From Nanobdellota archaeon (GTDB taxonomy: Archaea > Nanobdellota > Nanobdellia > UBA10117 > ARS21), in NCBI GenBank assembly GCA_014239585.1, contig JAAZYP010000001.1, positions 111,421-175,420 on the forward strand: a stretch of 64,000 nucleotides of DNA. The letters are read 5' to 3'. A program made the position numbers and the translations under genes. Under the pieces are notes generated by a model that made no database searches, had not been told where the DNA came from, and saw nothing but the letters and a program-made list of their open reading frames with translations. The number at the start of each line of letters is the position of its first letter. The stretch's first letter is position 1. This document shows, in pieces, positions 32,343-61,447 of this stretch.

Positions 32343-32876
32343 ATGACCTCGGGAATTAGAGCAATAGATATTATGAGTCATAAAGTTGTTACAGCAAATA
32401 CAAATATGACTATTTTTGAAGCAGCCAAATTAATGAATAAACATCGGATCGGCGGATTACCCGTTTGTGACGGTGACGAATTATTAGGATTATTAACTGA
32501 ACGAGATATTATGATGAAAGTTATCGCAGCAGATAAACATCCTTCAAAAACAACAGTCAAACAAGTTATGAATTCGCCGTTAAAGGCACATGCACAAAAA
32601 TTTGAAGATATTTCTGAACTTGCTCGAAAAATGAATGAACACGATATTTCCAGAGTTCCGATATTACATGAAGGAAAGTTAGTCGGAATTGTTACAAACA
32701 AAGATATACTGGAACACGCACCTCACTTACTTGAAACGTTTTTAGAGAGAGGACGAATATCTGCAAAAGGTAAACCTGAACATCCTGAAGCATTCGGAGT
32801 CTGCGAGATGTGTAATTTATCGGGACATTTACATTATAGTTCAAATAATGGATTTATTTGTGATGAATGTTTATAA
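32343..32876 (+). CDS. CBS-pair domain protein with C-terminal zinc ribbon
   Basis: Two CBS motifs (HRIGGLPVCD, ISRVPILHEGKLVGIVTNKD) plus C-terminal CEMC...CDEC. Confidence 0.7.
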   Translation: MTSGIRAIDIMSHKVVTANTNMTIFEAAKLMNKHRIGGLPVCDGDELLGLLTERDIMMKVIAADKHPSKTTVKQVMNSPLKAHAQKFEDISELARKMNEHDISRVPILHEGKLVGIVTNKDILEHAPHLLETFLERGRISAKGKPEHPEAFGVCEMCNLSGHLHYSSNNGFICDECL

Positions 32877-33614
32877 CACATTAATTAAATTTCTTAATCC
32901 TTGCGCCAGACCCAATACAAAAATAGATATAATAATTAATTTAGATAATTTTGATTTATCCCCATTTAGATAATAAATTACAGGAATAATAATAATCAAT
33001 TTTGCAGGTATAAACGCTAAAGGTGTTCCAAAAAAATCAATTACTGCACGCGGAATAACATGTTTTTCAAATCCACCAAAGAATAACAGAATAAATCCCG
33101 TGTTTAATGCATCAAATAATTGTGCAGTTAAAGCATAATTTGAAATTTTTGAAAAATTTAATGATTTTGTCCAACTTAATAATAATTTTGAAGCAAAAAT
33201 TGTTAATACTAAAATAAAAATCAAGTATGATTTAATTGAGAAACTAATACCATAAATTAATAAAAAAGAAATTAATGAAAGTAGACCTAATTCTTTCAAT
33301 TTACCGAATAATAGTCCGATCATGAATAATGAAGCCAAAGTTAGATATAATCCTGGGCTAACTGTAAAAAATGTCTTTTCAATTAAACCTTTATCAACAT
33401 AAGATCTCATTAATGCACCAAATATAATGTAAGGTACAAGATTTCTAACAAAAATTATATCCAATTTTATTTTTTTATGTTTGATAAAATACTTGATAAA
33501 ATAAATCCCTAAAAATGCAAATAACCCATAAGTAATAGTATTAACTAAATTATATTCATATATTCCGTTGAAAGGTAAAATAAAATATTTATTTAGAAGT
33601 TCTAGAAATGCCAT
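32871..33614 (-). CDS. polytopic membrane protein (DUF63-like?)
   Basis: 247 aa, 7-8 TM helices. Confidence 0.5.
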   Translation of the reverse strand: MAFLELLNKYFILPFNGIYEYNLVNTITYGLFAFLGIYFIKYFIKHKKIKLDIIFVRNLVPYIIFGALMRSYVDKGLIEKTFFTVSPGLYLTLASLFMIGLLFGKLKELGLLSLISFLLIYGISFSIKSYLIFILVLTIFASKLLLSWTKSLNFSKISNYALTAQLFDALNTGFILLFFGGFEKHVIPRAVIDFFGTPLAFIPAKLIIIIPVIYYLNGDKSKLSKLIIISIFVLGLAQGLRNLINVL

Positions 33615-34045
33615 CCTTCATCCTCGTCTTTTTGAGTTGTTGGCGCAGGAGAAGTTTGTTCTTGAGTTTGTTGTTGTGGCGATTGATAAGGATTAAATTG
33701 TGGTTGAGTCGGTTGCGACTGAACTTGTACTGGTTTTGCCGTAGTAGAATGTTTTTGTTCAAGCGAATTAACTCGCTGAGATAATCCATCTAAACTAGAT
33801 TTCATAGTTTCTACTTTTGAAACCAATAAATTCAAAGTTGATTGAATGGAACTTAATTGAGAATTATTTTCAGTCACCGGATTGGATACAGGCATAGTTG
33901 GGCTAGAGTGTTCTGGAGTCATAATCGGTTCGGAATCAAAAGATGGTCCAGGCACAGAAGATGTTCTTGATCCCAAAGAATCACCAAATTCAGGAAAATC
34001 TTCTTTATTTTTTTTTAAAGGATTTAGTTTATCAAAAATAGCCAT
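33602..34045 (-). CDS. coiled-coil protein with Q/P/T-rich low-complexity tail
   Basis: 147 aa; stop overlaps the downstream membrane gene by 13 nt. A coiled-coil heptad segment is followed by a Q/P/T-rich tail. Confidence 0.45.
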   Translation of the reverse strand: MAIFDKLNPLKKNKEDFPEFGDSLGSRTSSVPGPSFDSEPIMTPEHSSPTMPVSNPVTENNSQLSSIQSTLNLLVSKVETMKSSLDGLSQRVNSLEQKHSTTAKPVQVQSQPTQPQFNPYQSPQQQTQEQTSPAPTTQKDEDEGWHF

Positions 34046-34104
34046 TATATAATTGACAATCAGAAGCTTATATATTTTTTGTAAGAAGAAAGATATTAAT
34101 AATA

Positions 34105-35562
34105 TTGAATGGAATTATGATTATGTCAGATCATCCTCTCGGTAAAGCTGTGTTCGAAACCGAAATTCATTACGAAAATTTTCAAGAAGGTATTGAAAAA
34201 TTTTATTTTACGGTTATAGATATAGTTGAAAACAGTTTAGGATATGAAATAAATAAAACTGAAGATCAATTTTTGACATCACCCGGTTCCGCACAATGGC
34301 AAGTTTTTGAGCAACGAAAAGCTGCTCAACAAGAAAAAGCCGCTCAATATCTTGCAAATATTGGTCGAATGACTAAAGATATGATGGTACTTTATCGCGA
34401 ATTAAAGATTCAGGATGAAAGATTGGGATTTTATAAAAAATCAAATGACGGTGATAAAGCTGCAGAAATTTCACTGAAAACACTGTATGTTGATCTTGTT
34501 CAAGGTGGTGCTAAAGATCCATCATCAGTCTTAGGTTTAGCTCAACATGTCGGATTTGTAACATTACCTGATTTATTTTTCAAGTTGGATATCAAAAAAG
34601 AAGAGGATATAGATAAAATTGTGGAAAAGGTTGAAACAAATACTCAAGTTAAGAACGTATTAAAGCGAGAATTATTCAAATATGCGCGGTGGCGGAATAG
34701 AACATACGATGAGCTGACCACACGTAGACATTTCAATATAAAGTATTTGGCTCAACATTTTAATGTCATCAAAATGTATTTAGAATGGGCAAAACCATAT
34801 TTACATAACGTAACTAACTTAACTCAAAATAGTAAAAATGAAAAATCATATCAAATTTTACAAACTTCAGAAAGTTCAATATCCGATATTGAAGTTGTAT
34901 GTAAGCGTAAAAAAATTGATGCTGCAAAGGATTTTGAATATATTTTTCCAATAATTACAGTTACATTTCATCATCGAACTCGTCCAGTTATGGCATATCA
35001 GGGACAGGAATACAGTAAGGGCGCAATTCAATTAGGGCGAATTGAATGTGAAATGAAAGGATTTAATCTAACTGAAACTGAATATAAGAATTATCTTGAT
35101 AAGAAGGAAAAGGATATACTTGAACTCTTATCTTCAGTCGATGAATCGATGAAAGTATTTTTGAATGATTCCAATTCGAAAAAAGATTTTGAGGCATATT
35201 TAGCAGAAGCACGTGAAGAAAACAAAGCTGACAAAGATAAAACCAAAAAATCAGGATCAATTTTAGATATGTTTCGATTCGGAGGCAAGAAAAAATCAAA
35301 AACTAAAGAAAAATCAGATTATACACCATTTATTGATGATTATCGAAAAGAAGATAAAAAAGCAGATAAAATTAAAAAAGAAGTAACTAGTTTTATAATT
35401 TCAAAACTTCGTAAAAAACATAAATTATCGTTAGTTAAATCTGAAAAAATTTTAAAAAAATATAATGAAGACAAGGCATTATCTAAAAATTCAGTTAAAA
35501 GTAATTTAGAAGTTCTATATGATATTATAAAAATAAATTATGGAATGATTCGAAATGAGTAG
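34105..35562 (+). CDS. hypothetical protein, first gene of 4-gene plus-strand operon
   Basis: 485 aa, no recognisable motif; stop overlaps the next ORF by 8 nt. Confidence 0.55.
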   Translation: MNGIMIMSDHPLGKAVFETEIHYENFQEGIEKFYFTVIDIVENSLGYEINKTEDQFLTSPGSAQWQVFEQRKAAQQEKAAQYLANIGRMTKDMMVLYRELKIQDERLGFYKKSNDGDKAAEISLKTLYVDLVQGGAKDPSSVLGLAQHVGFVTLPDLFFKLDIKKEEDIDKIVEKVETNTQVKNVLKRELFKYARWRNRTYDELTTRRHFNIKYLAQHFNVIKMYLEWAKPYLHNVTNLTQNSKNEKSYQILQTSESSISDIEVVCKRKKIDAAKDFEYIFPIITVTFHHRTRPVMAYQGQEYSKGAIQLGRIECEMKGFNLTETEYKNYLDKKEKDILELLSSVDESMKVFLNDSNSKKDFEAYLAEAREENKADKDKTKKSGSILDMFRFGGKKKSKTKEKSDYTPFIDDYRKEDKKADKIKKEVTSFIISKLRKKHKLSLVKSEKILKKYNEDKALSKNSVKSNLEVLYDIIKINYGMIRNE

Positions 35563-36013
35563 ATTTTTAGAATTAAAAAAACAATTAACTTTACTTGACC
35601 CATTTATTCGGTTGAAGCGAATAAAGGAAATTTTAGTTCATGTAAAATCAAAAAAAGCGCGTAAAGAATTGATTGATCTTGCAAGAATTGCAATATATCA
35701 ACTAAATCGAGTAAGAGAAGGAGAAGAACGTTCAAGTTTAGATTCAAAAATTACTGAAAATATATCTGATGATAAATTATCTGCAAAAATTGAACGAACG
35801 ATTGAAGAAATTGCTGAAGAAGAAAGTACATTAATTCAAAAATCTGAAGATCAAGAAATGAAAGGTCATGATTCACAAAAAAATGAATCTCCTGAAAATA
35901 TATATGGTCTAAATTCAAAAACTGATTCAGACGATTTTTATAAATCTACGAAATCAGATACATTTTATGCGTCTCCCGAAGAGGATAAAAAGGAGAAACG
36001 ATTATATTTCTAA
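35555..36013 (+). CDS. hypothetical acidic protein
   Basis: 152 aa; its stop abuts the ATG of the next gene with no gap. Confidence 0.45.
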   Translation: MSRFLELKKQLTLLDPFIRLKRIKEILVHVKSKKARKELIDLARIAIYQLNRVREGEERSSLDSKITENISDDKLSAKIERTIEEIAEEESTLIQKSEDQEMKGHDSQKNESPENIYGLNSKTDSDDFYKSTKSDTFYASPEEDKKEKRLYF

Positions 36014-37885
36014 ATGGGCGAAAATTGTCACGATCATGATACGCCAGAAATACCTGGATACTGGCATTCAATGGATAGCAATCCAAGTCAATATACTGGA
36101 GATAAATTTTCAGCAGGACAATTATCGATTTCCACACCTCCATTCAAAAATCAATTAGATAGTATTCGTACTCGAATTATGCAAGGTGCAACTAATGTTG
36201 AACTTGGTTTTACTGGAACTGGAAAAGGAACGGGTCAAAATTTAACTCCGGGAACACTGGGAATTCCCGAACGTATTGCAATTAAGGAGATTGCAAAAAT
36301 TAACGATGTTGGAATTAACTCAGTTCATTCTGCAATGAGTATACAAGGATTAGCAGGTTTTTCTCAAAATCAATTTAGTGAAGAAAAACGAGCAACTGAT
36401 ATAGAAGAAGTTAAGCGAACAATAGATTTTGCATCAGATGTTACTGATGGGGGTGCAATAGTTGTACATACGGGAGAGTTTCCATATAGCGTTAAACGAA
36501 AATACGGTGATAAGTTATTTACAACAAAAGACGGCAAAAAAATTGAATTATCTGAAGAGTTAGGAAGAGCAGAAACATATCCAATTCTTTTTGTAGATAA
36601 ATATGATGGAAACGTTTCAGGTGGAGTAAGACCGAATTGGACTAGTTTTAGTTTTGACGAAAAAGGTAAAGAACACACTATTAATTTAGATGATATGGAA
36701 AAACTTGCAAAATTTAATTTGGAAAAATATTCTGATAAAAATTTTATAGAAAAAAGTATCGATACATTTGGTAAACATTTGTCAGATAAACGAAAGAAAG
36801 AAATATATGAAAATAAAGAAGGATATGAAAAAACATTAGGAAATAAATATTGGTTAGCACAAGCACATGATTTAGATATATCTTCTAAAGAATCTGAGGC
36901 TAGGCGAGAAGAATATACGTTACGTGTAAATGAAGCTGCCGACAGATTAACTAAATTACATTCAGACATTGAAGCCAGAAAAAAAATAAAGAAAAATATT
37001 CCTAAAAATCGTTTTATTCCACACGATATTTCTGAAGTAAAAATTTCAGAATTGGAAGAAGATTATAAGAAATTATCATATCAGCAAAAACTTGATGAAA
37101 TGCATCGTCAAAGTTATACTTTAGCTCAAGCCGAGAAAGAAAAAAAGATATTTGATATGATTCCGATTGAAGATTATGGTAAACAACAAACTTCGAAATC
37201 TATTGCTGAATTAGCAATACATGCTCAAAAAATGACAAAAGAAAAAAACCTTAAAAAACCATTATTTGTTGCACCAGAAAATTTATGGGGAGGCGAATAT
37301 GGTGCTCACCCTGAAGATTTAAAACAGATAATAAATAATGCGCGATCACAGTTTGTTAAAAATGTGACTGATAACAAAACTATGTCTGAAAATGAAGCAA
37401 AAATTGCAGCAAAAGATCATATTAAAGCAACATTCGATATAGGTCATGCAAATATTTGGAGAAAATATTTTGGTGGGAATGATAACGAGTTCAAACAATG
37501 GTTGGGAAATGAAGTGAATAAACTAACAAAAGAAGGAATTATTGGGCATGTTCATGTTTCAGATAATTTCGGATATAATGATGAACATTTACCTCCAGGC
37601 TATGGTAATGCACCGATAAAGGAATTTATGACTCATTTGGAAAAGGGAAAATATAAAGGTGAAATAATTATCGAACCCGGACATCATGATATTCAATCCT
37701 ATAATTTGGGAATGAAACATTTAGAAACACCTATATATCGGATTCACAATAAGACCAGTACTTGGACAGATGTTGCAGGGTCTTATTTTGGAAAATCTCA
37801 TACTTATGGGTATATTACACCCCAATATCTTCCATCGCAAGATAAAAATCAAGCTTTTACTTGGTCAGAACTTCCATTGGAGTGA
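36014..37885 (+). CDS. xylose-isomerase-like TIM-barrel (AP-endonuclease-2/EndoIV family) protein with ~340-aa coiled-coil insertion
   Basis: Family motifs in order: SVHSAMS, AIVVHTGEF, then after a long coiled-coil insert FVAPENLWG (catalytic E of the lENt motif), FDIGHANIW (DxxH), GHVHVSDNFGYNDEHLPPGYGNAPI (HxxD...DxHLxPGxG), IIIEPGH (final E). Confidence 0.6.
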   Translation: MGENCHDHDTPEIPGYWHSMDSNPSQYTGDKFSAGQLSISTPPFKNQLDSIRTRIMQGATNVELGFTGTGKGTGQNLTPGTLGIPERIAIKEIAKINDVGINSVHSAMSIQGLAGFSQNQFSEEKRATDIEEVKRTIDFASDVTDGGAIVVHTGEFPYSVKRKYGDKLFTTKDGKKIELSEELGRAETYPILFVDKYDGNVSGGVRPNWTSFSFDEKGKEHTINLDDMEKLAKFNLEKYSDKNFIEKSIDTFGKHLSDKRKKEIYENKEGYEKTLGNKYWLAQAHDLDISSKESEARREEYTLRVNEAADRLTKLHSDIEARKKIKKNIPKNRFIPHDISEVKISELEEDYKKLSYQQKLDEMHRQSYTLAQAEKEKKIFDMIPIEDYGKQQTSKSIAELAIHAQKMTKEKNLKKPLFVAPENLWGGEYGAHPEDLKQIINNARSQFVKNVTDNKTMSENEAKIAAKDHIKATFDIGHANIWRKYFGGNDNEFKQWLGNEVNKLTKEGIIGHVHVSDNFGYNDEHLPPGYGNAPIKEFMTHLEKGKYKGEIIIEPGHHDIQSYNLGMKHLETPIYRIHNKTSTWTDVAGSYFGKSHTYGYITPQYLPSQDKNQAFTWSELPLE

Positions 37886-37916
37886 GCCAAAACTATTTAT
37901 ATTCTGAACTGAATAA

Positions 37917-38726
37917 TTGATTATGCGGTTTAGAGTTAATAAACGTAAGGTAAATTTTGAGTCAAAATATCCTAAACAAGACAGAGATTTAGCAAAGAAA
38001 TTTAGCAAATTAATATATAGTGAATTAGGCGATTTTATTAGCGCAGTGGTGTTATTTGGTTCTGCAGCAAAAGGAACATCAAAAAAGGAAAGTGATGTTG
38101 ATATTCTAATTATCATCGATGATGTACACATCGATTTATCAAAAGAAATAGTCGAAACATACAGAATTTTAATACAAAAAGCAGTTGCAAAAGTAAATCC
38201 AAAAAGACTTCATGTTCAATCATTAAAATTAACTGCATTTTGGGAATATACTCGTGCAGGAGATCCAGTAGCGATTAATATACTTCGAGATGGAATTGCA
38301 TTTATTGACAGAGGATTTTTTGAACCACTCCAGTTATTATTGTTGAATGGCCGGATCAGACCATCTCAGGAATCTGTTCAAACTTACATAAATATGGCAT
38401 TTTCTAGTTTAAATCGCAGTAAATCTGGAATAGATAGTGCAATTGTGGATCTATATTGGGCATGTATTGATTCAGCACATGCTGCATTAATGAGTCGAGG
38501 AGAAGTTCCAGTTTCACCAGCTCAAGTTGCAGATGAATTAGATAAAAAATTAGTTAAGAACAAACTCTTGGAAAAAAGATATGTTGATATTATGAGTCAT
38601 ATGTATGAATTATCCAAAAAACTTTTACGACGAGATATATCGAATCTATCAGGAAAAGATTACGATAAATATCTAAAATATACTGATGATTTTGTCAGTC
38701 GAATGACTAAAATAATCAAGTCTTAA
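37917..38726 (+). CDS. KNTase-like nucleotidyltransferase (Pol-beta superfamily NTase + helical HEPN-like C-domain)
   Basis: FGSAAKGTSKKESDVDILIIIDD = hG[GS]x(n)[DE]h[DE]h NTase signature. The C-terminal helical domain has R-x6-H (RYVDIMSH); 31 bp downstream of the TIM-barrel gene, same strand. Confidence 0.65.
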   Translation: MIMRFRVNKRKVNFESKYPKQDRDLAKKFSKLIYSELGDFISAVVLFGSAAKGTSKKESDVDILIIIDDVHIDLSKEIVETYRILIQKAVAKVNPKRLHVQSLKLTAFWEYTRAGDPVAINILRDGIAFIDRGFFEPLQLLLLNGRIRPSQESVQTYINMAFSSLNRSKSGIDSAIVDLYWACIDSAHAALMSRGEVPVSPAQVADELDKKLVKNKLLEKRYVDIMSHMYELSKKLLRRDISNLSGKDYDKYLKYTDDFVSRMTKIIKS

Positions 38727-39292
38727 AGACCGTGATTCAATAAGATCGTATAGGGTGTATTTGCCAATGCAGCTAAATCTGCCCGTAAATTATATTGTCT
38801 ATGTGCTCTATCTGTTAGAACACTTAATTGATTAGCAATTTGATCTCTTTCATCGGGTGTCGCAGTAGTATGATATTCATTAATATGATCTTGAACTGTA
38901 AGTAACATATCGGATCGATTTAAATTTAAAATTTGATCTGTGTTAATTCTTTGAGCTAAACCTTTTCCGTTCGATAATGCAAATGAAGCTATTCTTTCTC
39001 GTCTTGTTCGAGTATCATCAAATAATTGATCTGTACCAACTTGATACATTTGACCAATCATCGCTCGCATCGTGGATTCAACATGTGCATCTACTGCACC
39101 GTAGTCTACACCAAATCTATTATTCGCAATTCGCGCATTAAGCGTATCGATTGTAGTTGAAACATGATTGTGTGTTCTGGGCGCTACAGTTGTGAAATCT
39201 CTGATTAATCTTGTGAAATGATCATCCAACGTAGTTGTATCTTCATCTCTAATTCTTTGTGTGGTATCCAACATAAAGTTTGGTAGTGCCAT
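38723..39292 (-). CDS. hypothetical lysine-free protein (1 Lys, 0 Cys, 0 Trp in 189 aa)
   Basis: Uninterrupted 189-codon ORF with host-like AT-rich codons but composition dominated by T/R/D/N/A/L/H/Q. Convergent with the upstream NTase (4-nt overlap), divergent from the downstream NTase. Confidence 0.5.
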   Translation of the reverse strand: MALPNFMLDTTQRIRDEDTTTLDDHFTRLIRDFTTVAPRTHNHVSTTIDTLNARIANNRFGVDYGAVDAHVESTMRAMIGQMYQVGTDQLFDDTRTRRERIASFALSNGKGLAQRINTDQILNLNRSDMLLTVQDHINEYHTTATPDERDQIANQLSVLTDRAHRQYNLRADLAALANTPYTILLNHGL

Positions 39293-39383
39293 AATCCCCT
39301 CATTAATATTTTGTTTATAAGTGTTTCGTTTTCTTTAGATATGCCTGAGAAACCTTTAAATTAATGAAAAAACGACATACAAT

Positions 39384-41192
39384 ATGAGTGAACAAAATTT
39401 GCCTTCAGATAATGAAAAATTGAAAAAAATGTTTAATAAATTTCAGAAAGAAGACACGTCTAAAGTACTTGATGAAATGAATGCTAAATTAGATTCAGTT
39501 CAAAAGAAAGCTGAAAAAGTTAGAGACTCATTAATTAAAAGACATAAGGATGAAATTTTAGGTACAATTTTAGTTTACAAAAAAACTAAGGAAAATAATG
39601 TTCCCAGATTATTAGTAATCTCGGATATTAAAAAGAAAAATAATAAATTAAAAATTGAACATATTTTGAAAATTGAAAAGGAAGGAAATGCATTATCGAA
39701 AAATGATTTCAAAGTATCCTCCTATTTACTGGAAGAAATTTGGGATTCTGCAGCACGCGGACAGTACGGATTACTTCAAAGCATAGTCTCGGGAAGAATA
39801 TTATATGATCGAGGAGATTGGATCAAATCACTAAAGGCAGTAGAACTTCATAAATTCAGAATGCTTAGAAAATTTGAAAAATATGTTATTTCATATGTTA
39901 TTGCGGGGTCATTAATTCGAGGTGAAGCAAATGAAAATTCAGATGTTGATGTTTCATTAATTATCGATGATACTGATGTTACTCGAACTACTTCTGCAGA
40001 ATTAAAAGCTAGATTGAGAGATATTGCGTTGAAAGAAGCAAGAGATGCAGAACGTGATGCCGGAATTAAAGGAAAGTTAAATGTTCAAGTATGGATTTTA
40101 ACTGATTATTGGATGGGGTTAAGACGTGCTGAACCGATATTTTATACAACTTTGAGAGACGGAATTTCATTATATGATCGGGGAATGTTTGCACCATGGA
40201 AATTAATGCTTAAGAAAGGTATGTTGATTCCGAGTCCAGAATCAATTCGAAGATATATTGATGACGGTAAAAAACATGTGGAACGATTTAATTATAAGTT
40301 TAAATCAATGGCCATGGAAGATTTTTTTTGGGCGTGTATTTATCCAGCTCAAGGTTTATTAATGCTTCAAGGTATTCCGCCCGGTGCACCGAGTCAAGTT
40401 GCACCTCAGATGAAAGCAAATTTAGTAAAAAAAGGCATTTTGGATATTAAATATGTTAAAATTTTTGAGAAGTTACATAAAATTCGTAAAGATTTAGAAT
40501 ATGGTAAAATAAAATCAGTTTCTCCTGAAGAAATTGTGAATATGGCAAGATCTGCACAAGCGTTTGTTGAAGCGGTAGAAAAAGCTTACAATTCTTTAGA
40601 AAAGCGTAAAGTAAAATCTAAAATTGATGAACTAAAAGATCGAACAAAAAAAGATGTTAAGTTAGTGTTGAAAGTTGCAGGGATTAAATCAAATAAGAAA
40701 AATGTGCGTTCCGCACTTCAGAGTGAACTGATAGATAAAGGTCTTGCACGATCAAAATATACTGAATTAATTGAAAAACTAGAGGGATTAGATAAAGAAT
40801 TAACTCCCTTATCCATGATGGATAGTTTAGAATATAATTTGGATACAATTAGAGATGAAACAATAAATATCATAAATTCTGAAAAAGGATTGAATAAAGA
40901 TAAACATCGTTTGACATTAAAATATGGCGCGAAAGATAAACAAAAAATCGCATCAATTTGGCTGTTAAAGAGTATGGCATTTATGATTAAAGATTTATCA
41001 AATCAACAAGCACCAGTTTACAAATATTCCTTCGACGGTACAGGTAGACTATTCGATGAACAAAAATCTTCATTAAAAGTTCTTGAAAATAAACTTGCAA
41101 CTTATTCTGGAGGAAAGGCTAGAATTACTGCAAAAACAATAAATCAATTAAAGGAAATGTTAGATAAAAATTTGCAATTATTAATTGGCTAA
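39384..41192 (+). CDS. KNTase-like nucleotidyltransferase paralog with N- and C-terminal coiled-coil extensions
   Basis: IAGSLIRGEANENSDVDVSLIIDD NTase signature at about residue 175. The core aligns with the 269-aa paralog (LRDGISLYDRGMFAP vs LRDGIAFIDRGFFEP; FWACIYPAQGLLMLQGIPPGAPSQVAPQM vs YWACIDSAHAALMSRGEVPVSPAQVADEL). Confidence 0.65.
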   Translation: MSEQNLPSDNEKLKKMFNKFQKEDTSKVLDEMNAKLDSVQKKAEKVRDSLIKRHKDEILGTILVYKKTKENNVPRLLVISDIKKKNNKLKIEHILKIEKEGNALSKNDFKVSSYLLEEIWDSAARGQYGLLQSIVSGRILYDRGDWIKSLKAVELHKFRMLRKFEKYVISYVIAGSLIRGEANENSDVDVSLIIDDTDVTRTTSAELKARLRDIALKEARDAERDAGIKGKLNVQVWILTDYWMGLRRAEPIFYTTLRDGISLYDRGMFAPWKLMLKKGMLIPSPESIRRYIDDGKKHVERFNYKFKSMAMEDFFWACIYPAQGLLMLQGIPPGAPSQVAPQMKANLVKKGILDIKYVKIFEKLHKIRKDLEYGKIKSVSPEEIVNMARSAQAFVEAVEKAYNSLEKRKVKSKIDELKDRTKKDVKLVLKVAGIKSNKKNVRSALQSELIDKGLARSKYTELIEKLEGLDKELTPLSMMDSLEYNLDTIRDETINIINSEKGLNKDKHRLTLKYGAKDKQKIASIWLLKSMAFMIKDLSNQQAPVYKYSFDGTGRLFDEQKSSLKVLENKLATYSGGKARITAKTINQLKEMLDKNLQLLIG

Positions 41193-41605
41193 AGTAATTT
41201 AATATCTTTAATATTTTGATGATATACATTAATTACTTCTTTTAATTGTTTCAAAGTAGTTTGACCGTTACCTAATAATTTTCGTCGATCATTTGGATTA
41301 GCTAATAGCATTGCTAATACTCTACGATGAATTTTTGATGAATTTAATTTAATCGGATATATAAAATTTTTAATTGTTTCATCTAAACTTTCACCTTTCT
41401 CAAATATTTTAATATCCTTTTTGAATTGGTTTCTTAAATATTTAACATTCAATGCATCTCTTCCGATAGCTTTTCTTACCAAACCTTTATCTACCAAAAA
41501 TATAATTGATTTTTTTGTAACTATACAATTAAGCGGAGATACATTAGTCTTTTCTTTAAAAAATGCCATTGTTCGAAGGGCATAATTGTCTATTGTTATT
41601 GTCAT
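41189..41605 (-). CDS. nusA: archaeal NusA-like KH-domain protein
   Basis: 138 aa with two KH-like GxxG regions, located immediately downstream of L30e and rpoA2 as in archaeal RNAP operons. Confidence 0.65.
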   Translation of the reverse strand: MTITIDNYALRTMAFFKEKTNVSPLNCIVTKKSIIFLVDKGLVRKAIGRDALNVKYLRNQFKKDIKIFEKGESLDETIKNFIYPIKLNSSKIHRRVLAMLLANPNDRRKLLGNGQTTLKQLKEVINVYHQNIKDIKLL

Positions 41606-41847
41606 TATTTTTTAATACCAATTACTGAAATTAAAAATGGTTTTCGAAGTAAAGTTCCTAACTCTTCGCTATTTTGTTTAACTTGCTCTATTTCAACTTT
41701 ACCTAATTTTTTTGTTATACTTTCTTTCATATCAGCAGGATAATTTGAAGATAAAAATACCTTCACTAATAATTTTGAATTTTTGATTATTTTAGCGGTT
41801 CCATAAAGAATTTTATCTTTATTTTTTAGTGCATCAGTTAATTTCAT
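41605..41847 (-). CDS. rpl30e: ribosomal protein L30e
   Basis: 80 aa; [26 protein letters not shown] pattern and operon position. Confidence 0.8.
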
Positions 41848-61336: not shown

Positions 61337-61447
61337 GCCTCGGTAGCTCAGTTTGGTAGAGCGCTGCATTGGTAACGCAAAGAATCCTTCGCGGATTGGC
61401 TTGCGCCAATAATGCAGAGGCCGCGAGTTCAAATCCCGCCTGGGGCA
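61337..61447 (+). tRNA. tRNA-Thr (anticodon GGT) with 37-nt intron at canonical 37/38 position
   Basis: Acceptor GCCUCGG/CUGGGGC (two G-U pairs), D-arm AGCUCAGUUUGGUAGAGC, anticodon stem CUGCA...UGCAG interrupted by intron 61375..61411, T-loop UUCAAAU. Confidence 0.7.

Follow-up and report, generated by a model that had tools for sequence, protein, structure and literature searches.

The question raised by this locus is whether its genes form a single functional module and, if so, what such a module would do. The Woesearchaeota and Pacearchaeota are abundant, uncultivated and host-dependent archaea with genomes of ~1 Mb, in which many retained genes have no known function. In the window (the whole stretch of 64 000 nucleotides that was analysed) the initial annotation had proposed a six-gene module, and all six of its ORFs were recovered at the same coordinates. 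Our study found the conserved unit to be a three-gene operon, g485, g152 and g623, which is specific to Nanoarchaeia (Woese-/Pacearchaeota, DPANN). We tentatively propose, with the chances slightly below even, that this operon encodes a multi-subunit metallo-phosphoesterase with a facultative nucleotidyltransferase (NTase) partner. The chemistry would be metal-activated phosphate-ester hydrolysis, because g623 keeps all nine residues at the trinuclear-cluster positions of endonuclease IV.

Conservation and genomic context

The g485 family was found in at least 355 species genomes of Woese-, Pace- and Nanoarchaeota. In the window, g485 (34105-35562, plus strand) overlaps g152 (35555-36013, plus) by 8 bp, and g623 (36014-37885, plus), the TIM-barrel gene, follows g152 with no gap. 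Among 69 informative loci, defined by 1.5 kb or more of downstream sequence, a TIM-barrel gene followed g485 on the same strand in 63, and 6/69 had none nearby. The gaps between g485 and the small-protein gene, and between the latter and the TIM gene, were mostly −8 to +10 bp. The operon is single-copy and occupies stable chromosomal positions beside housekeeping genes, with flanking genes that vary by lineage (the RNAP operon, an Na/H exchanger, signal peptidase II and others). Three loci have a permuted gene order, which points to a functional linkage and not to an inherited one.

Downstream of g623, after a gap of 31 bp, lies g269 (37917-38726, plus), a short NTase of the Pol-beta superfamily with a helical C-terminal domain. 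Of the 57 loci with enough downstream sequence for this count, 39 have a same-strand NTase of this type downstream of the TIM gene, adjacent to it in 20, and 18 have no nearby NTase. The tight packing from which co-transcription of the first four genes had been suggested holds for g485, g152 and g623, which are co-directional and translationally coupled in many contexts, but g269 is facultative. Likewise, the conserved core and the frequent same-strand NTase neighbour of the six-gene proposal were retained, but the six genes are not one unit: g602 adjoins the operon in nine loci (five of the 57 scan loci, the window, L001, L002 and L008), and g189 is confined to a narrow clade (8 proteins, ≥57 % identity). 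Besides the window, g602 orthologues lie near the operon only in L001, L002, L008, L011, L012, L013, L049 and L072. The initial annotation also left out a 147-aa gene (33602-34045, minus) between the DUF63 gene and g485.

Within the Woesearchaeales, a CRM/YhbY gene was directly upstream in 15 loci, TYW3 followed the NTase in 5-7 loci and a class-I methyltransferase-like gene followed the TIM gene; these RNA-related neighbours may simply be syntenic in a single order. No structured RNAs turned up in Rfam and tRNA scans of the 34-41 kb interval, and the composition of the locus is native to the host genome.

The operon takes up ~1,260 codons, or ~1,530 with the NTase, and is probably important to the organisms that carry it, since it has been retained in hundreds of species. 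Homology searches assigned its genes to no characterized housekeeping families. The searchable literature gave no description of the cluster, in agreement with the earlier remark that no described system of this composition was known, and contained nothing on Woesearchaeota and endonuclease IV, nor on DPANN archaea with a xylose-isomerase-like barrel and an NTase.

The two orphan proteins

Orthologues of g485 begin MSDH or MIMSDH, so its true start is probably ATG 34123 or 34117 (479-481 aa); the former, giving 479 aa, is the probable start rather than the annotated TTG. The protein consists of a split alpha/beta domain, a long helical hairpin predicted at residues 58-108/174-233 in the structure model, and a Lys-rich basic C-terminal tail with a charge of +16. 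The helical tip of the hairpin is highly conserved and carries the motif VEGGxKNPxSVxGLAxQVGFVTLPDLFF. The domain arrangement is uncertain because the model pTM is 0.53. No match to g485 was found in Pfam, NCBIfam, PHROGs or PADLOC, or among PDB sequences using its profile, and 32 homologues scanned against domain families at E≤1 returned scattered noise only. An exhaustive profile search resolved the family into 688 clusters (50 % identity) but offered no hint of function, as neither fusions nor differing architectures were present among the best 150 of the 688.

The second protein, g152, has a basic N-terminal helix (LxPxxRLKRLKE motif; charge +8.6 over residues 1-55) and then an acidic low-complexity tail (−11 over residues 56-152). 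In ~52 loci g485 and the TIM gene are separated by an ORF of 140-240 aa that bears KKLSPEERIKRLKELEE, or a variant of it, as its N-terminal motif; in three loci this ORF comes after the TIM gene. These ORFs group as clusters f3 (39 loci) and f19 (7 loci). Searches of Pfam, NCBIfam, PHROGs and PADLOC with g152 found nothing. Both proteins had been described as having no recognizable motifs, and indeed neither has Pfam or solved-structure relatives.

The basic tail of g485 bears upon a different reading, in which the complex handles phospholipids, for example host-derived ones; g485 would serve as a scaffold that binds membranes or lipids, the barrel with its trinuclear metal site would cleave head groups as phospholipase C does, and the NTase would re-activate the phosphate with a nucleotide. 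The tail could bind acidic membranes, but the fold matches of g485 are short and weak and also include the RNA-binding KA1 domains of METTL16 and TUT1. The operon occurs solely in a host-dependent lineage, whose members are thought to be without lipid synthesis and would hence have to take up lipids from the host; however, neither a transmembrane segment nor a signal peptide nor a lipid-enzyme neighbour was consistently linked to it. Trinuclear zinc sites are also present in phospholipase C, yet we know of no phospholipase with the xylose-isomerase fold, and of no lipid-activating enzyme among the MNT/KNTase-class Pol-beta-type NTases. We consider a role in lipid handling distinctly unlikely.

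The TIM-barrel protein

g623 has the xylose-isomerase-like TIM-barrel fold (PF01261, E 3e-16, the match being split in two stretches). An insert of ~260 aa (residues 157-415) follows directly on the VHTGE strand and comes out of the loop after the fourth barrel strand. In the AF2 model the insert is formed by a beta subdomain (191-224), helices and a helical hairpin (278-328/341-381), with a pLDDT of 80-97, and so differs from the single coiled coil of ~340 aa that the initial annotation had placed within the barrel. All 120 homologues among the matches listed (>90 % query coverage; 558-672 aa) have the insert.

The metal site was compared with that of E. coli endonuclease IV (Nfo) at H69, H109, E145, D179, H182, H216, D229, H231 and E261. 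The nine candidate ligands of g623 (H105, H152, E422, D475, H478, H514, D523, H525 and E554) were invariant in 24 homologues, whose identity to g623 is 33-68 %. For the five C-terminal ligands there is a residue-by-residue alignment with Nfo (H182/H478, H216/H514, D229/D523, H231/H525 and E261/E554). H105 and H152 align with two His motifs of the archaeal protein MJ1311, and E422 and D475 were placed according to the strand order of the AF2 model, whose motif strands run in the same order as in endonuclease IV. These four N-terminal equivalences rest on motif and strand order because the global pairwise alignment to Nfo failed for the N-terminal half. Similarity at the family level was not detected: NCBIfam gave no match to an Nfo model and sub-threshold sugar epimerase/isomerase matches only, the g623 profile found no endonuclease IV in the PDB at E≤1, and hhalign against Nfo was not significant overall (probability 0.1). 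The earlier label of an 'EndoIV/xylose-isomerase-like' barrel is right as to the fold, but the nearest solved relative is the uncharacterized MJ1311 and not a proven endonuclease IV.

The same barrel could instead be a sugar(-phosphate) isomerase or epimerase, that is, a carbohydrate enzyme beside unrelated structural and regulatory proteins. Source annotations do read 'sugar phosphate isomerase/epimerase', but the NCBIfam matches in this direction are weak, at 18.6 bits against a cut-off of 305 for fructoselysine 3-epimerase and 14.2 against 353 for hydroxypyruvate isomerase. The E-D-H-E tetrad of the family is present (E422, D475, H512 or H514, E554); however, five more invariant residues (H105, H152, H478, D523 and H525) sit at endonuclease IV ligand positions, and a single-metal epimerase has no need for residues equivalent to H105, H152, D523 and H525. 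An enzyme tightly coupled to an NTase and to two large coiled-coil proteins that are not enzymes does not fit the pattern of a carbohydrate operon either, and no sugar kinase, transporter or aldolase was consistently linked. These observations make a carbohydrate enzyme quite improbable.

The nucleotidyltransferases and the lysine-poor protein

The identification of g269 as a nucleotidyltransferase was borne out by an NTP_transf_2 match of 38.5 bits (cut-off 21) and by the invariance of G48, S49, D60, D62, D68 and D69, the GS...DxD...DD signature being constant in 22 orthologues. As orthologues begin MRF, its true start is probably ATG 37923 (267 aa). A TATA-like box at 37893-37903 suggests that g269 has a promoter of its own. 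The paralogy claimed for g602 (39384-41192, plus), the long NTase, likewise held (31.5 % identity with g269 over 238 aa, E 4e-32); it scores 20.8 bits against NTP_transf_2, just under the cut-off, but keeps the GS, DxD and DD residues. Its N-terminal (~160 aa) and C-terminal (~200 aa) extensions have no Pfam match, and its net charge is +32. Profile searches of the PDB with the NTase returned only generic MNT, KNTase and HalB similarity. A HEPN-like R-x6-H motif had been reported in the C-terminal domain of g269, where no Pfam HEPN match was found; the motif (RYVDIMSH; RYSDIMKH in L002) is not kept in other orthologues (KYSHTVDK in L004, KSAQTMRK in L008) or in g602 (KYVKIFEK). The NTase is the best-conserved protein of the set, at 47-66 % identity compared to 37-50 % for g485, which suits a housekeeping function better than one in defence.

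Between the two NTase genes lies g189 (38723-39292, minus), an acidic protein with a 4-bp convergent overlap with g269. As the initial annotation had stated, it contains a single lysine and has host codon usage: one Lys in 189 residues (0.5 %) is the lowest value of the 58 ORFs in the window (median 9.5 %), and its GC3 of 0.205 is host-like. Eight homologues (57-100 % identity) have 0-8 Lys each, and all of those with readable context occupy the same slot between two NTase genes. In L002, L011-L013, L049 and L072 this slot holds other acidic, Lys-poor ORFs of 193-312 aa, which we treated as non-homologous to g189 or diverged past detection, because unfiltered BLAST and hmmsearch comparisons gave no E value below 0.025. 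Pfam, NCBIfam, PHROGs, PADLOC, phage genomes and IMG/VR contained nothing similar to g189. The protein is a lineage-specific, fast-turnover local accessory outside the conserved core. A viral or mobile origin of the locus was considered and rejected, as g485 and g189 are unmatched in phage genomes and IMG/VR and the composition is native.

A defence or toxin-antitoxin-like system, in which the NTases and the fast-evolving small ORF would make up a conflict system of the MNT type and the TIM barrel would be its effector nuclease, is very improbable: the slot between the NTase genes does turn over rapidly and the PADLOC PDC-S09 and PDC-M05A models, MntA and HalB match the NTase domain, but these matches cover the generic domain only and fall under their cut-offs (MntA 31.8 against 60 bits; HalB 23.3 against 190), there is no HEPN or toxin partner, and the operon is near-universal across at least 355 species in a housekeeping context.

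Proposed function

Returning to the metallo-phosphoesterase, g623 would be the catalytic subunit of a hetero-oligomeric enzyme, with the long helical hairpin of its insert arm docking onto that of g485; we infer such a complex from gene coupling and shared coiled coils, while the linkage of the genes, the barrel fold and the conserved ligands are observed. The basic helix and acidic tail of g152 would suit an adaptor or regulator. The MNT/KNTase-type g269 is a frequent partner, separable from the core, and g602 is its duplicated, extended paralog in one sub-lineage. For the substrate our best guess, which we consider less likely than not, is damaged or blocked nucleic-acid ends; the esterase would strip phosphate groups or abasic residues that block the 3' end, after which nucleotides would be added by the NTase. 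A role in repair or modification, as had been speculated, is plausible. A bolder version, which we think rather unlikely, is that the operon encodes a lineage-defining machine: a trinuclear-metal phosphoesterase scaffolded by coiled coils, comprising two subunits of orphan fold and a nucleotidyltransferase dedicated to it, processing host-derived nucleic acids or phospholipids for symbiosis and not generic base-excision repair.

The operon offers a clonable target, comprising an enzyme with a predictable metal site and an unusual insert and two partner families without known relatives. Its activity, once solved, would also open the archaeal MJ1311 group of endonuclease IV-like barrels to functional interpretation for the first time.

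Comparison with known systems

The NTases g269 and g602 resemble the minimal MNT/KNTase-type nucleotidyltransferases (MntA, ANT(4')/KNTase, AadA and HalB) in having a GS-x(10)-DxD Pol-beta core and then a helical domain. For g269 this likeness is confined to approximately the first 100 residues; unlike these enzymes, it has a C-terminal domain that matches no family and in which no HEPN motif is conserved. Unlike MNT systems, g269 is chromosomal, highly conserved and linked to a TIM-barrel operon, and has no toxin partner.

Nfo is a trinuclear-zinc AP endonuclease and 3'-diesterase. g623 has invariant residues at all nine of its metal-ligand positions (PDB 1QTW), five of them aligned directly, without a family-level sequence match. 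Nfo has no large insert and functions as a monomer with no partner proteins of its own, whereas g623 has both an insert and operon partners.

By sequence and by structure the closest solved relative of g623 is MJ1311 of Methanocaldococcus jannaschii (PDB 3WQO), an uncharacterized 'D-tagatose 3-epimerase-like' TIM barrel. The loop after the fourth barrel strand, from which the insert of g623 emerges, reportedly caps the neighbouring active site in the MJ1311 dimer, and MJ1311 is said not to have the DNA-binding groove of endonuclease IV. The one mention of MJ1311 in the searchable literature was as the predicted endonuclease IV homologue of M. jannaschii, tabulated in a 2009 survey (PMC2770678). 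The match transfers no activity to g623, since MJ1311 has no known function, and g623 has no other homologue that is characterized. The two proteins have in common the motifs TFDIGHAN and HVHxxDNxGYxDEHLxxGxGxxxF and both N-terminal His motifs; however, MJ1311 is compact (~290 aa), whereas g623 carries the beta subdomain and helical hairpin of its ~260-aa insert and, unlike MJ1311, sits in an operon with two orphan proteins.

A conserved three-gene operon

Comparison of homologous loci revealed that only part of the proposed six-gene module holds together: the linkage of the orphan genes g485 and g152 (genes are named by product length in aa) to g623, which encodes an MJ1311/endonuclease IV-like TIM barrel, is kept across lineages, whereas the lysine-poor ORF g189 and the long nucleotidyltransferase (NTase) g602 are lineage-limited and the short NTase g269 is separable. 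ORFs were called in 80 g485 loci and in nine loci from an exact protein look-up, and scored by per-family HMMs. Where the sequence ran on for at least 1.5 kb beyond g485 (69 loci), the TIM gene came next on the same strand in 63, and an ORF of 140-240 aa with the N-terminal motif KKLSPEERIKRLKELEE (LLDPFIRLKRIKEIL in g152) lay between the two in ~52 loci. The gaps on either side of this small gene were mostly −8 to +10 bp, and in three loci (L043, L047 and L059) it followed the TIM gene instead of preceding it. The surroundings of the operon varied by lineage and included the RNA polymerase operon, a Na+/H+ exchanger with Carb_kinase and a CRM protein, and signal peptidase II. Same-strand linkage, short gaps, varying flanks and the permuted small gene together mark the operon as functionally coupled and not as a gene order kept by descent. 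No TIM-barrel gene was found within 1.7-9.8 kb downstream of g485 in L031, L033, L046, L058, L076 and L086, where it may lie elsewhere in the genome or have been lost. Some ten further loci (e.g. L004, L039, L051, L070 and L088) lack a recognizable small-protein gene.

A pattern scan using one genome per species identified at least 355 g485-encoding loci, almost all from genome records named as Woese-, Pace- or Nanoarchaeota, and an exhaustive profile search placed the g485 family in 688 clusters at 50 % identity. Lengths among the best 150 of these 688 clusters were mostly 450-560 aa, the shorter entries being apparently truncated, and extra domains were seen in none of the 150. For g623, more than 229 homologues were full-length (557-672 aa), all with the insert, and the source names, where given, were Woesearchaeota, Pacearchaeota, Nanoarchaeota or DHVE6. 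Otherwise restricted to Woese-/Pacearchaeota, the operon was also seen in genome records bearing the name 'uncultured Methanosarcinales archaeon' or 'Candidatus Aminicenantes bacterium' (L019, L022, L029, L031, L033, L034, L045, L046, L048 and others), probably MAGs that are contaminated or carry the wrong taxonomic label.

Organization of the locus in the window

ORF calling recovered all six genes of the initial annotation at their coordinates, together with the tight packing described for g485, g152, g623 and g269 (an 8-bp overlap, no gap and a 31-bp gap). g189 is convergent on g269, which it overlaps by 4 bp, and divergent from g602, 91 bp away. Comparison with orthologues places the true start of g485 probably at the ATG at 34123 (479 aa), and that of g269 probably at the ATG at 37923 (267 aa). 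The GC content is ~31 % along the whole window and composition is unbroken at the locus, with the GC3 of the six genes (0.12-0.21) matching that of the RNA polymerase and GTPase genes that flank it. The flanks are archaeal, encoding a CBS protein, a DUF63 membrane protein, a NusA-like KH protein and RpoA''/RpoA'; they also hold an 80-aa ORF (41605-41847).

The DUF63 gene (Pfam now AliA_AliB; 32871-33614, minus strand) overlaps by 13 bp the gene for a 147-aa coiled-coil protein rich in Q, P and S (33602-34045, minus strand), and this pair (families f14 and f16) was seen again in ~10 related loci. The 147-aa gene, which had been left out of the initial annotation, is outside the conserved module. 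Elsewhere in the window, a tRNA of 111 nt at 61337-61447 (plus strand; Rfam 53.8 bits, no ARAGORN call) is probably an intron-containing archaeal tRNA.

TATA-like boxes were read by eye at 34069-34080, ~40-50 nt upstream of g485, and at 37893-37903, ~25 nt upstream of the g269 ATG; two more, each ~22-27 nt upstream of the respective ATG, precede g602 (39352-39363) and g189 (39311-39319). Their positions suggest that the accessory genes g269, g602 and g189 may be under separate promoters, possibly with leaderless transcripts.

The NTases and the slot between them

Of the 57 loci with enough downstream sequence, 39 have the short NTase downstream of the core in the same orientation, directly adjacent in 20 (gaps 8-151 bp) and never on the opposite strand in the loci compared. 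No other protein of the set is as well conserved (47-66 % identity versus 37-50 % for g485). Because it was not found within 10 kb in the remaining 18 loci and has a TATA-like box of its own, g269 is treated as a frequent but separable partner of the core. By comparison, g602 was found close to the operon in the window and in just eight loci (L001, L002, L008, L011-L013, L049 and L072). Both NTase families keep the GS-x10-DxD motif and the DD pair, and neither resembles MntA, KNTase, AadA or HalB beyond the catalytic domain, with scores under the family cut-offs. An HEPN-like R-x6-H domain had been claimed for g269, but the motif varies among relatives and an HEPN RNase is therefore without support.

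Other neighbours were seen repeatedly in Woesearchaeales-type loci (L014-L086; e.g. L062 9510-9788). In 15 loci the gene immediately before g485, in the same orientation, encodes a CRS1/YhbY (CRM) RNA-binding protein and is itself preceded by Na+/H+ exchanger-TrkA and Carb_kinase genes. A class-I methyltransferase-like gene of 180 aa, of a family that occurs in 14 loci, comes after the TIM gene in 6, and TYW3 follows the NTase in 5-7.

The lysine depletion reported for g189 (38723-39292, minus strand) is real and clearly non-random, at 0.5 % against a median of 9.5 % and the lowest of 58 ORFs. Just eight homologues were found (57-100 % identity, 0-8 lysines each), all in the same slot where the context was readable. 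In six other lineages the order short NTase, convergent ORF, long NTase recurs with an ORF of 193-312 aa that has no detectable similarity to g189, and slot ORFs (189-312 aa) of different lineages likewise share no detectable similarity. Convergent, acidic and lysine-poor ORFs occupy the slot in L002 (12809-13435), L011 (14624-15349), L012 (14792-15460), L013 (14612-15271), L049 (6352-6933) and L072 (15163-16101). In all eight such loci, the window and L001 included, the slot ORF is acidic (pI 4.4-5.9) and in the lowest third of its own locus for lysine content. This is either an extremely fast-evolving gene or the result of repeated replacements, and g189 is a fast-turnover accessory gene outside the conserved system.

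Putative function of the operon

Nine residues of g623 are invariant (H105, H152, E422, D475, H478, H514, D523, H525 and E554), located at the ends of strands 3-8 in the order of the trinuclear zinc ligands of endonuclease IV (Nfo). Five align directly with Nfo H182, H216, D229, H231 and E261; the other four were assigned from the MJ1311 alignment and strand order. MJ1311 of Methanocaldococcus jannaschii was listed as a predicted endonuclease IV homologue in a 2009 survey (PMC2770678). Curated models place g623 in neither the Nfo family nor any sugar isomerase family. The MJ1311 structure (PDB 3WQO) reportedly keeps all nine endonuclease IV ligands and lacks the DNA groove. No domain match was found for g485; its predicted structure (pLDDT 75.8, pTM 0.53) comprises an alpha/beta domain formed by the N-terminus together with residues 252-317, a pair of helices 50-60 residues long on either side of a small helical tip carrying the most conserved sequence of the family, a basic, lysine-rich tail and a conserved C-terminal helix.

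The best-supported reading is that g623, g485 and g152 would build a hetero-oligomeric metallo-phosphoesterase, which g269 would join facultatively. The invariant endonuclease IV-type ligand set points to phosphoesterase chemistry, and translational coupling and the paired helical hairpins of g623 (residues 278-381) and g485 suggest complex formation. Nucleic-acid ends are the favoured candidate substrate, on the grounds of the endonuclease IV-type site, the NTase partner and, in Woesearchaeales, RNA-related neighbours. The rivals are a phospholipid role, a sugar epimerase role and a defence role. Defence ranks lowest, since the operon is near-universal, single-copy and distributed like a housekeeping system, and relatives of g485 or g189 were found in neither phage genomes nor IMG/VR.

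As the initial annotation had supposed, no description of this gene cluster was found in the literature searched, and no family models cover g485, g152, g189 or the g602 extensions. The operon represents well-delimited, lineage-wide and testable DPANN dark matter, with a surprising mechanism not yet apparent. Its catalytic domains belong to known superfamilies and the operon is not demonstrably a system of a new kind; its novelty lies in an MJ1311/endonuclease IV-type barrel that has an unprecedented insert and partners dedicated to it.
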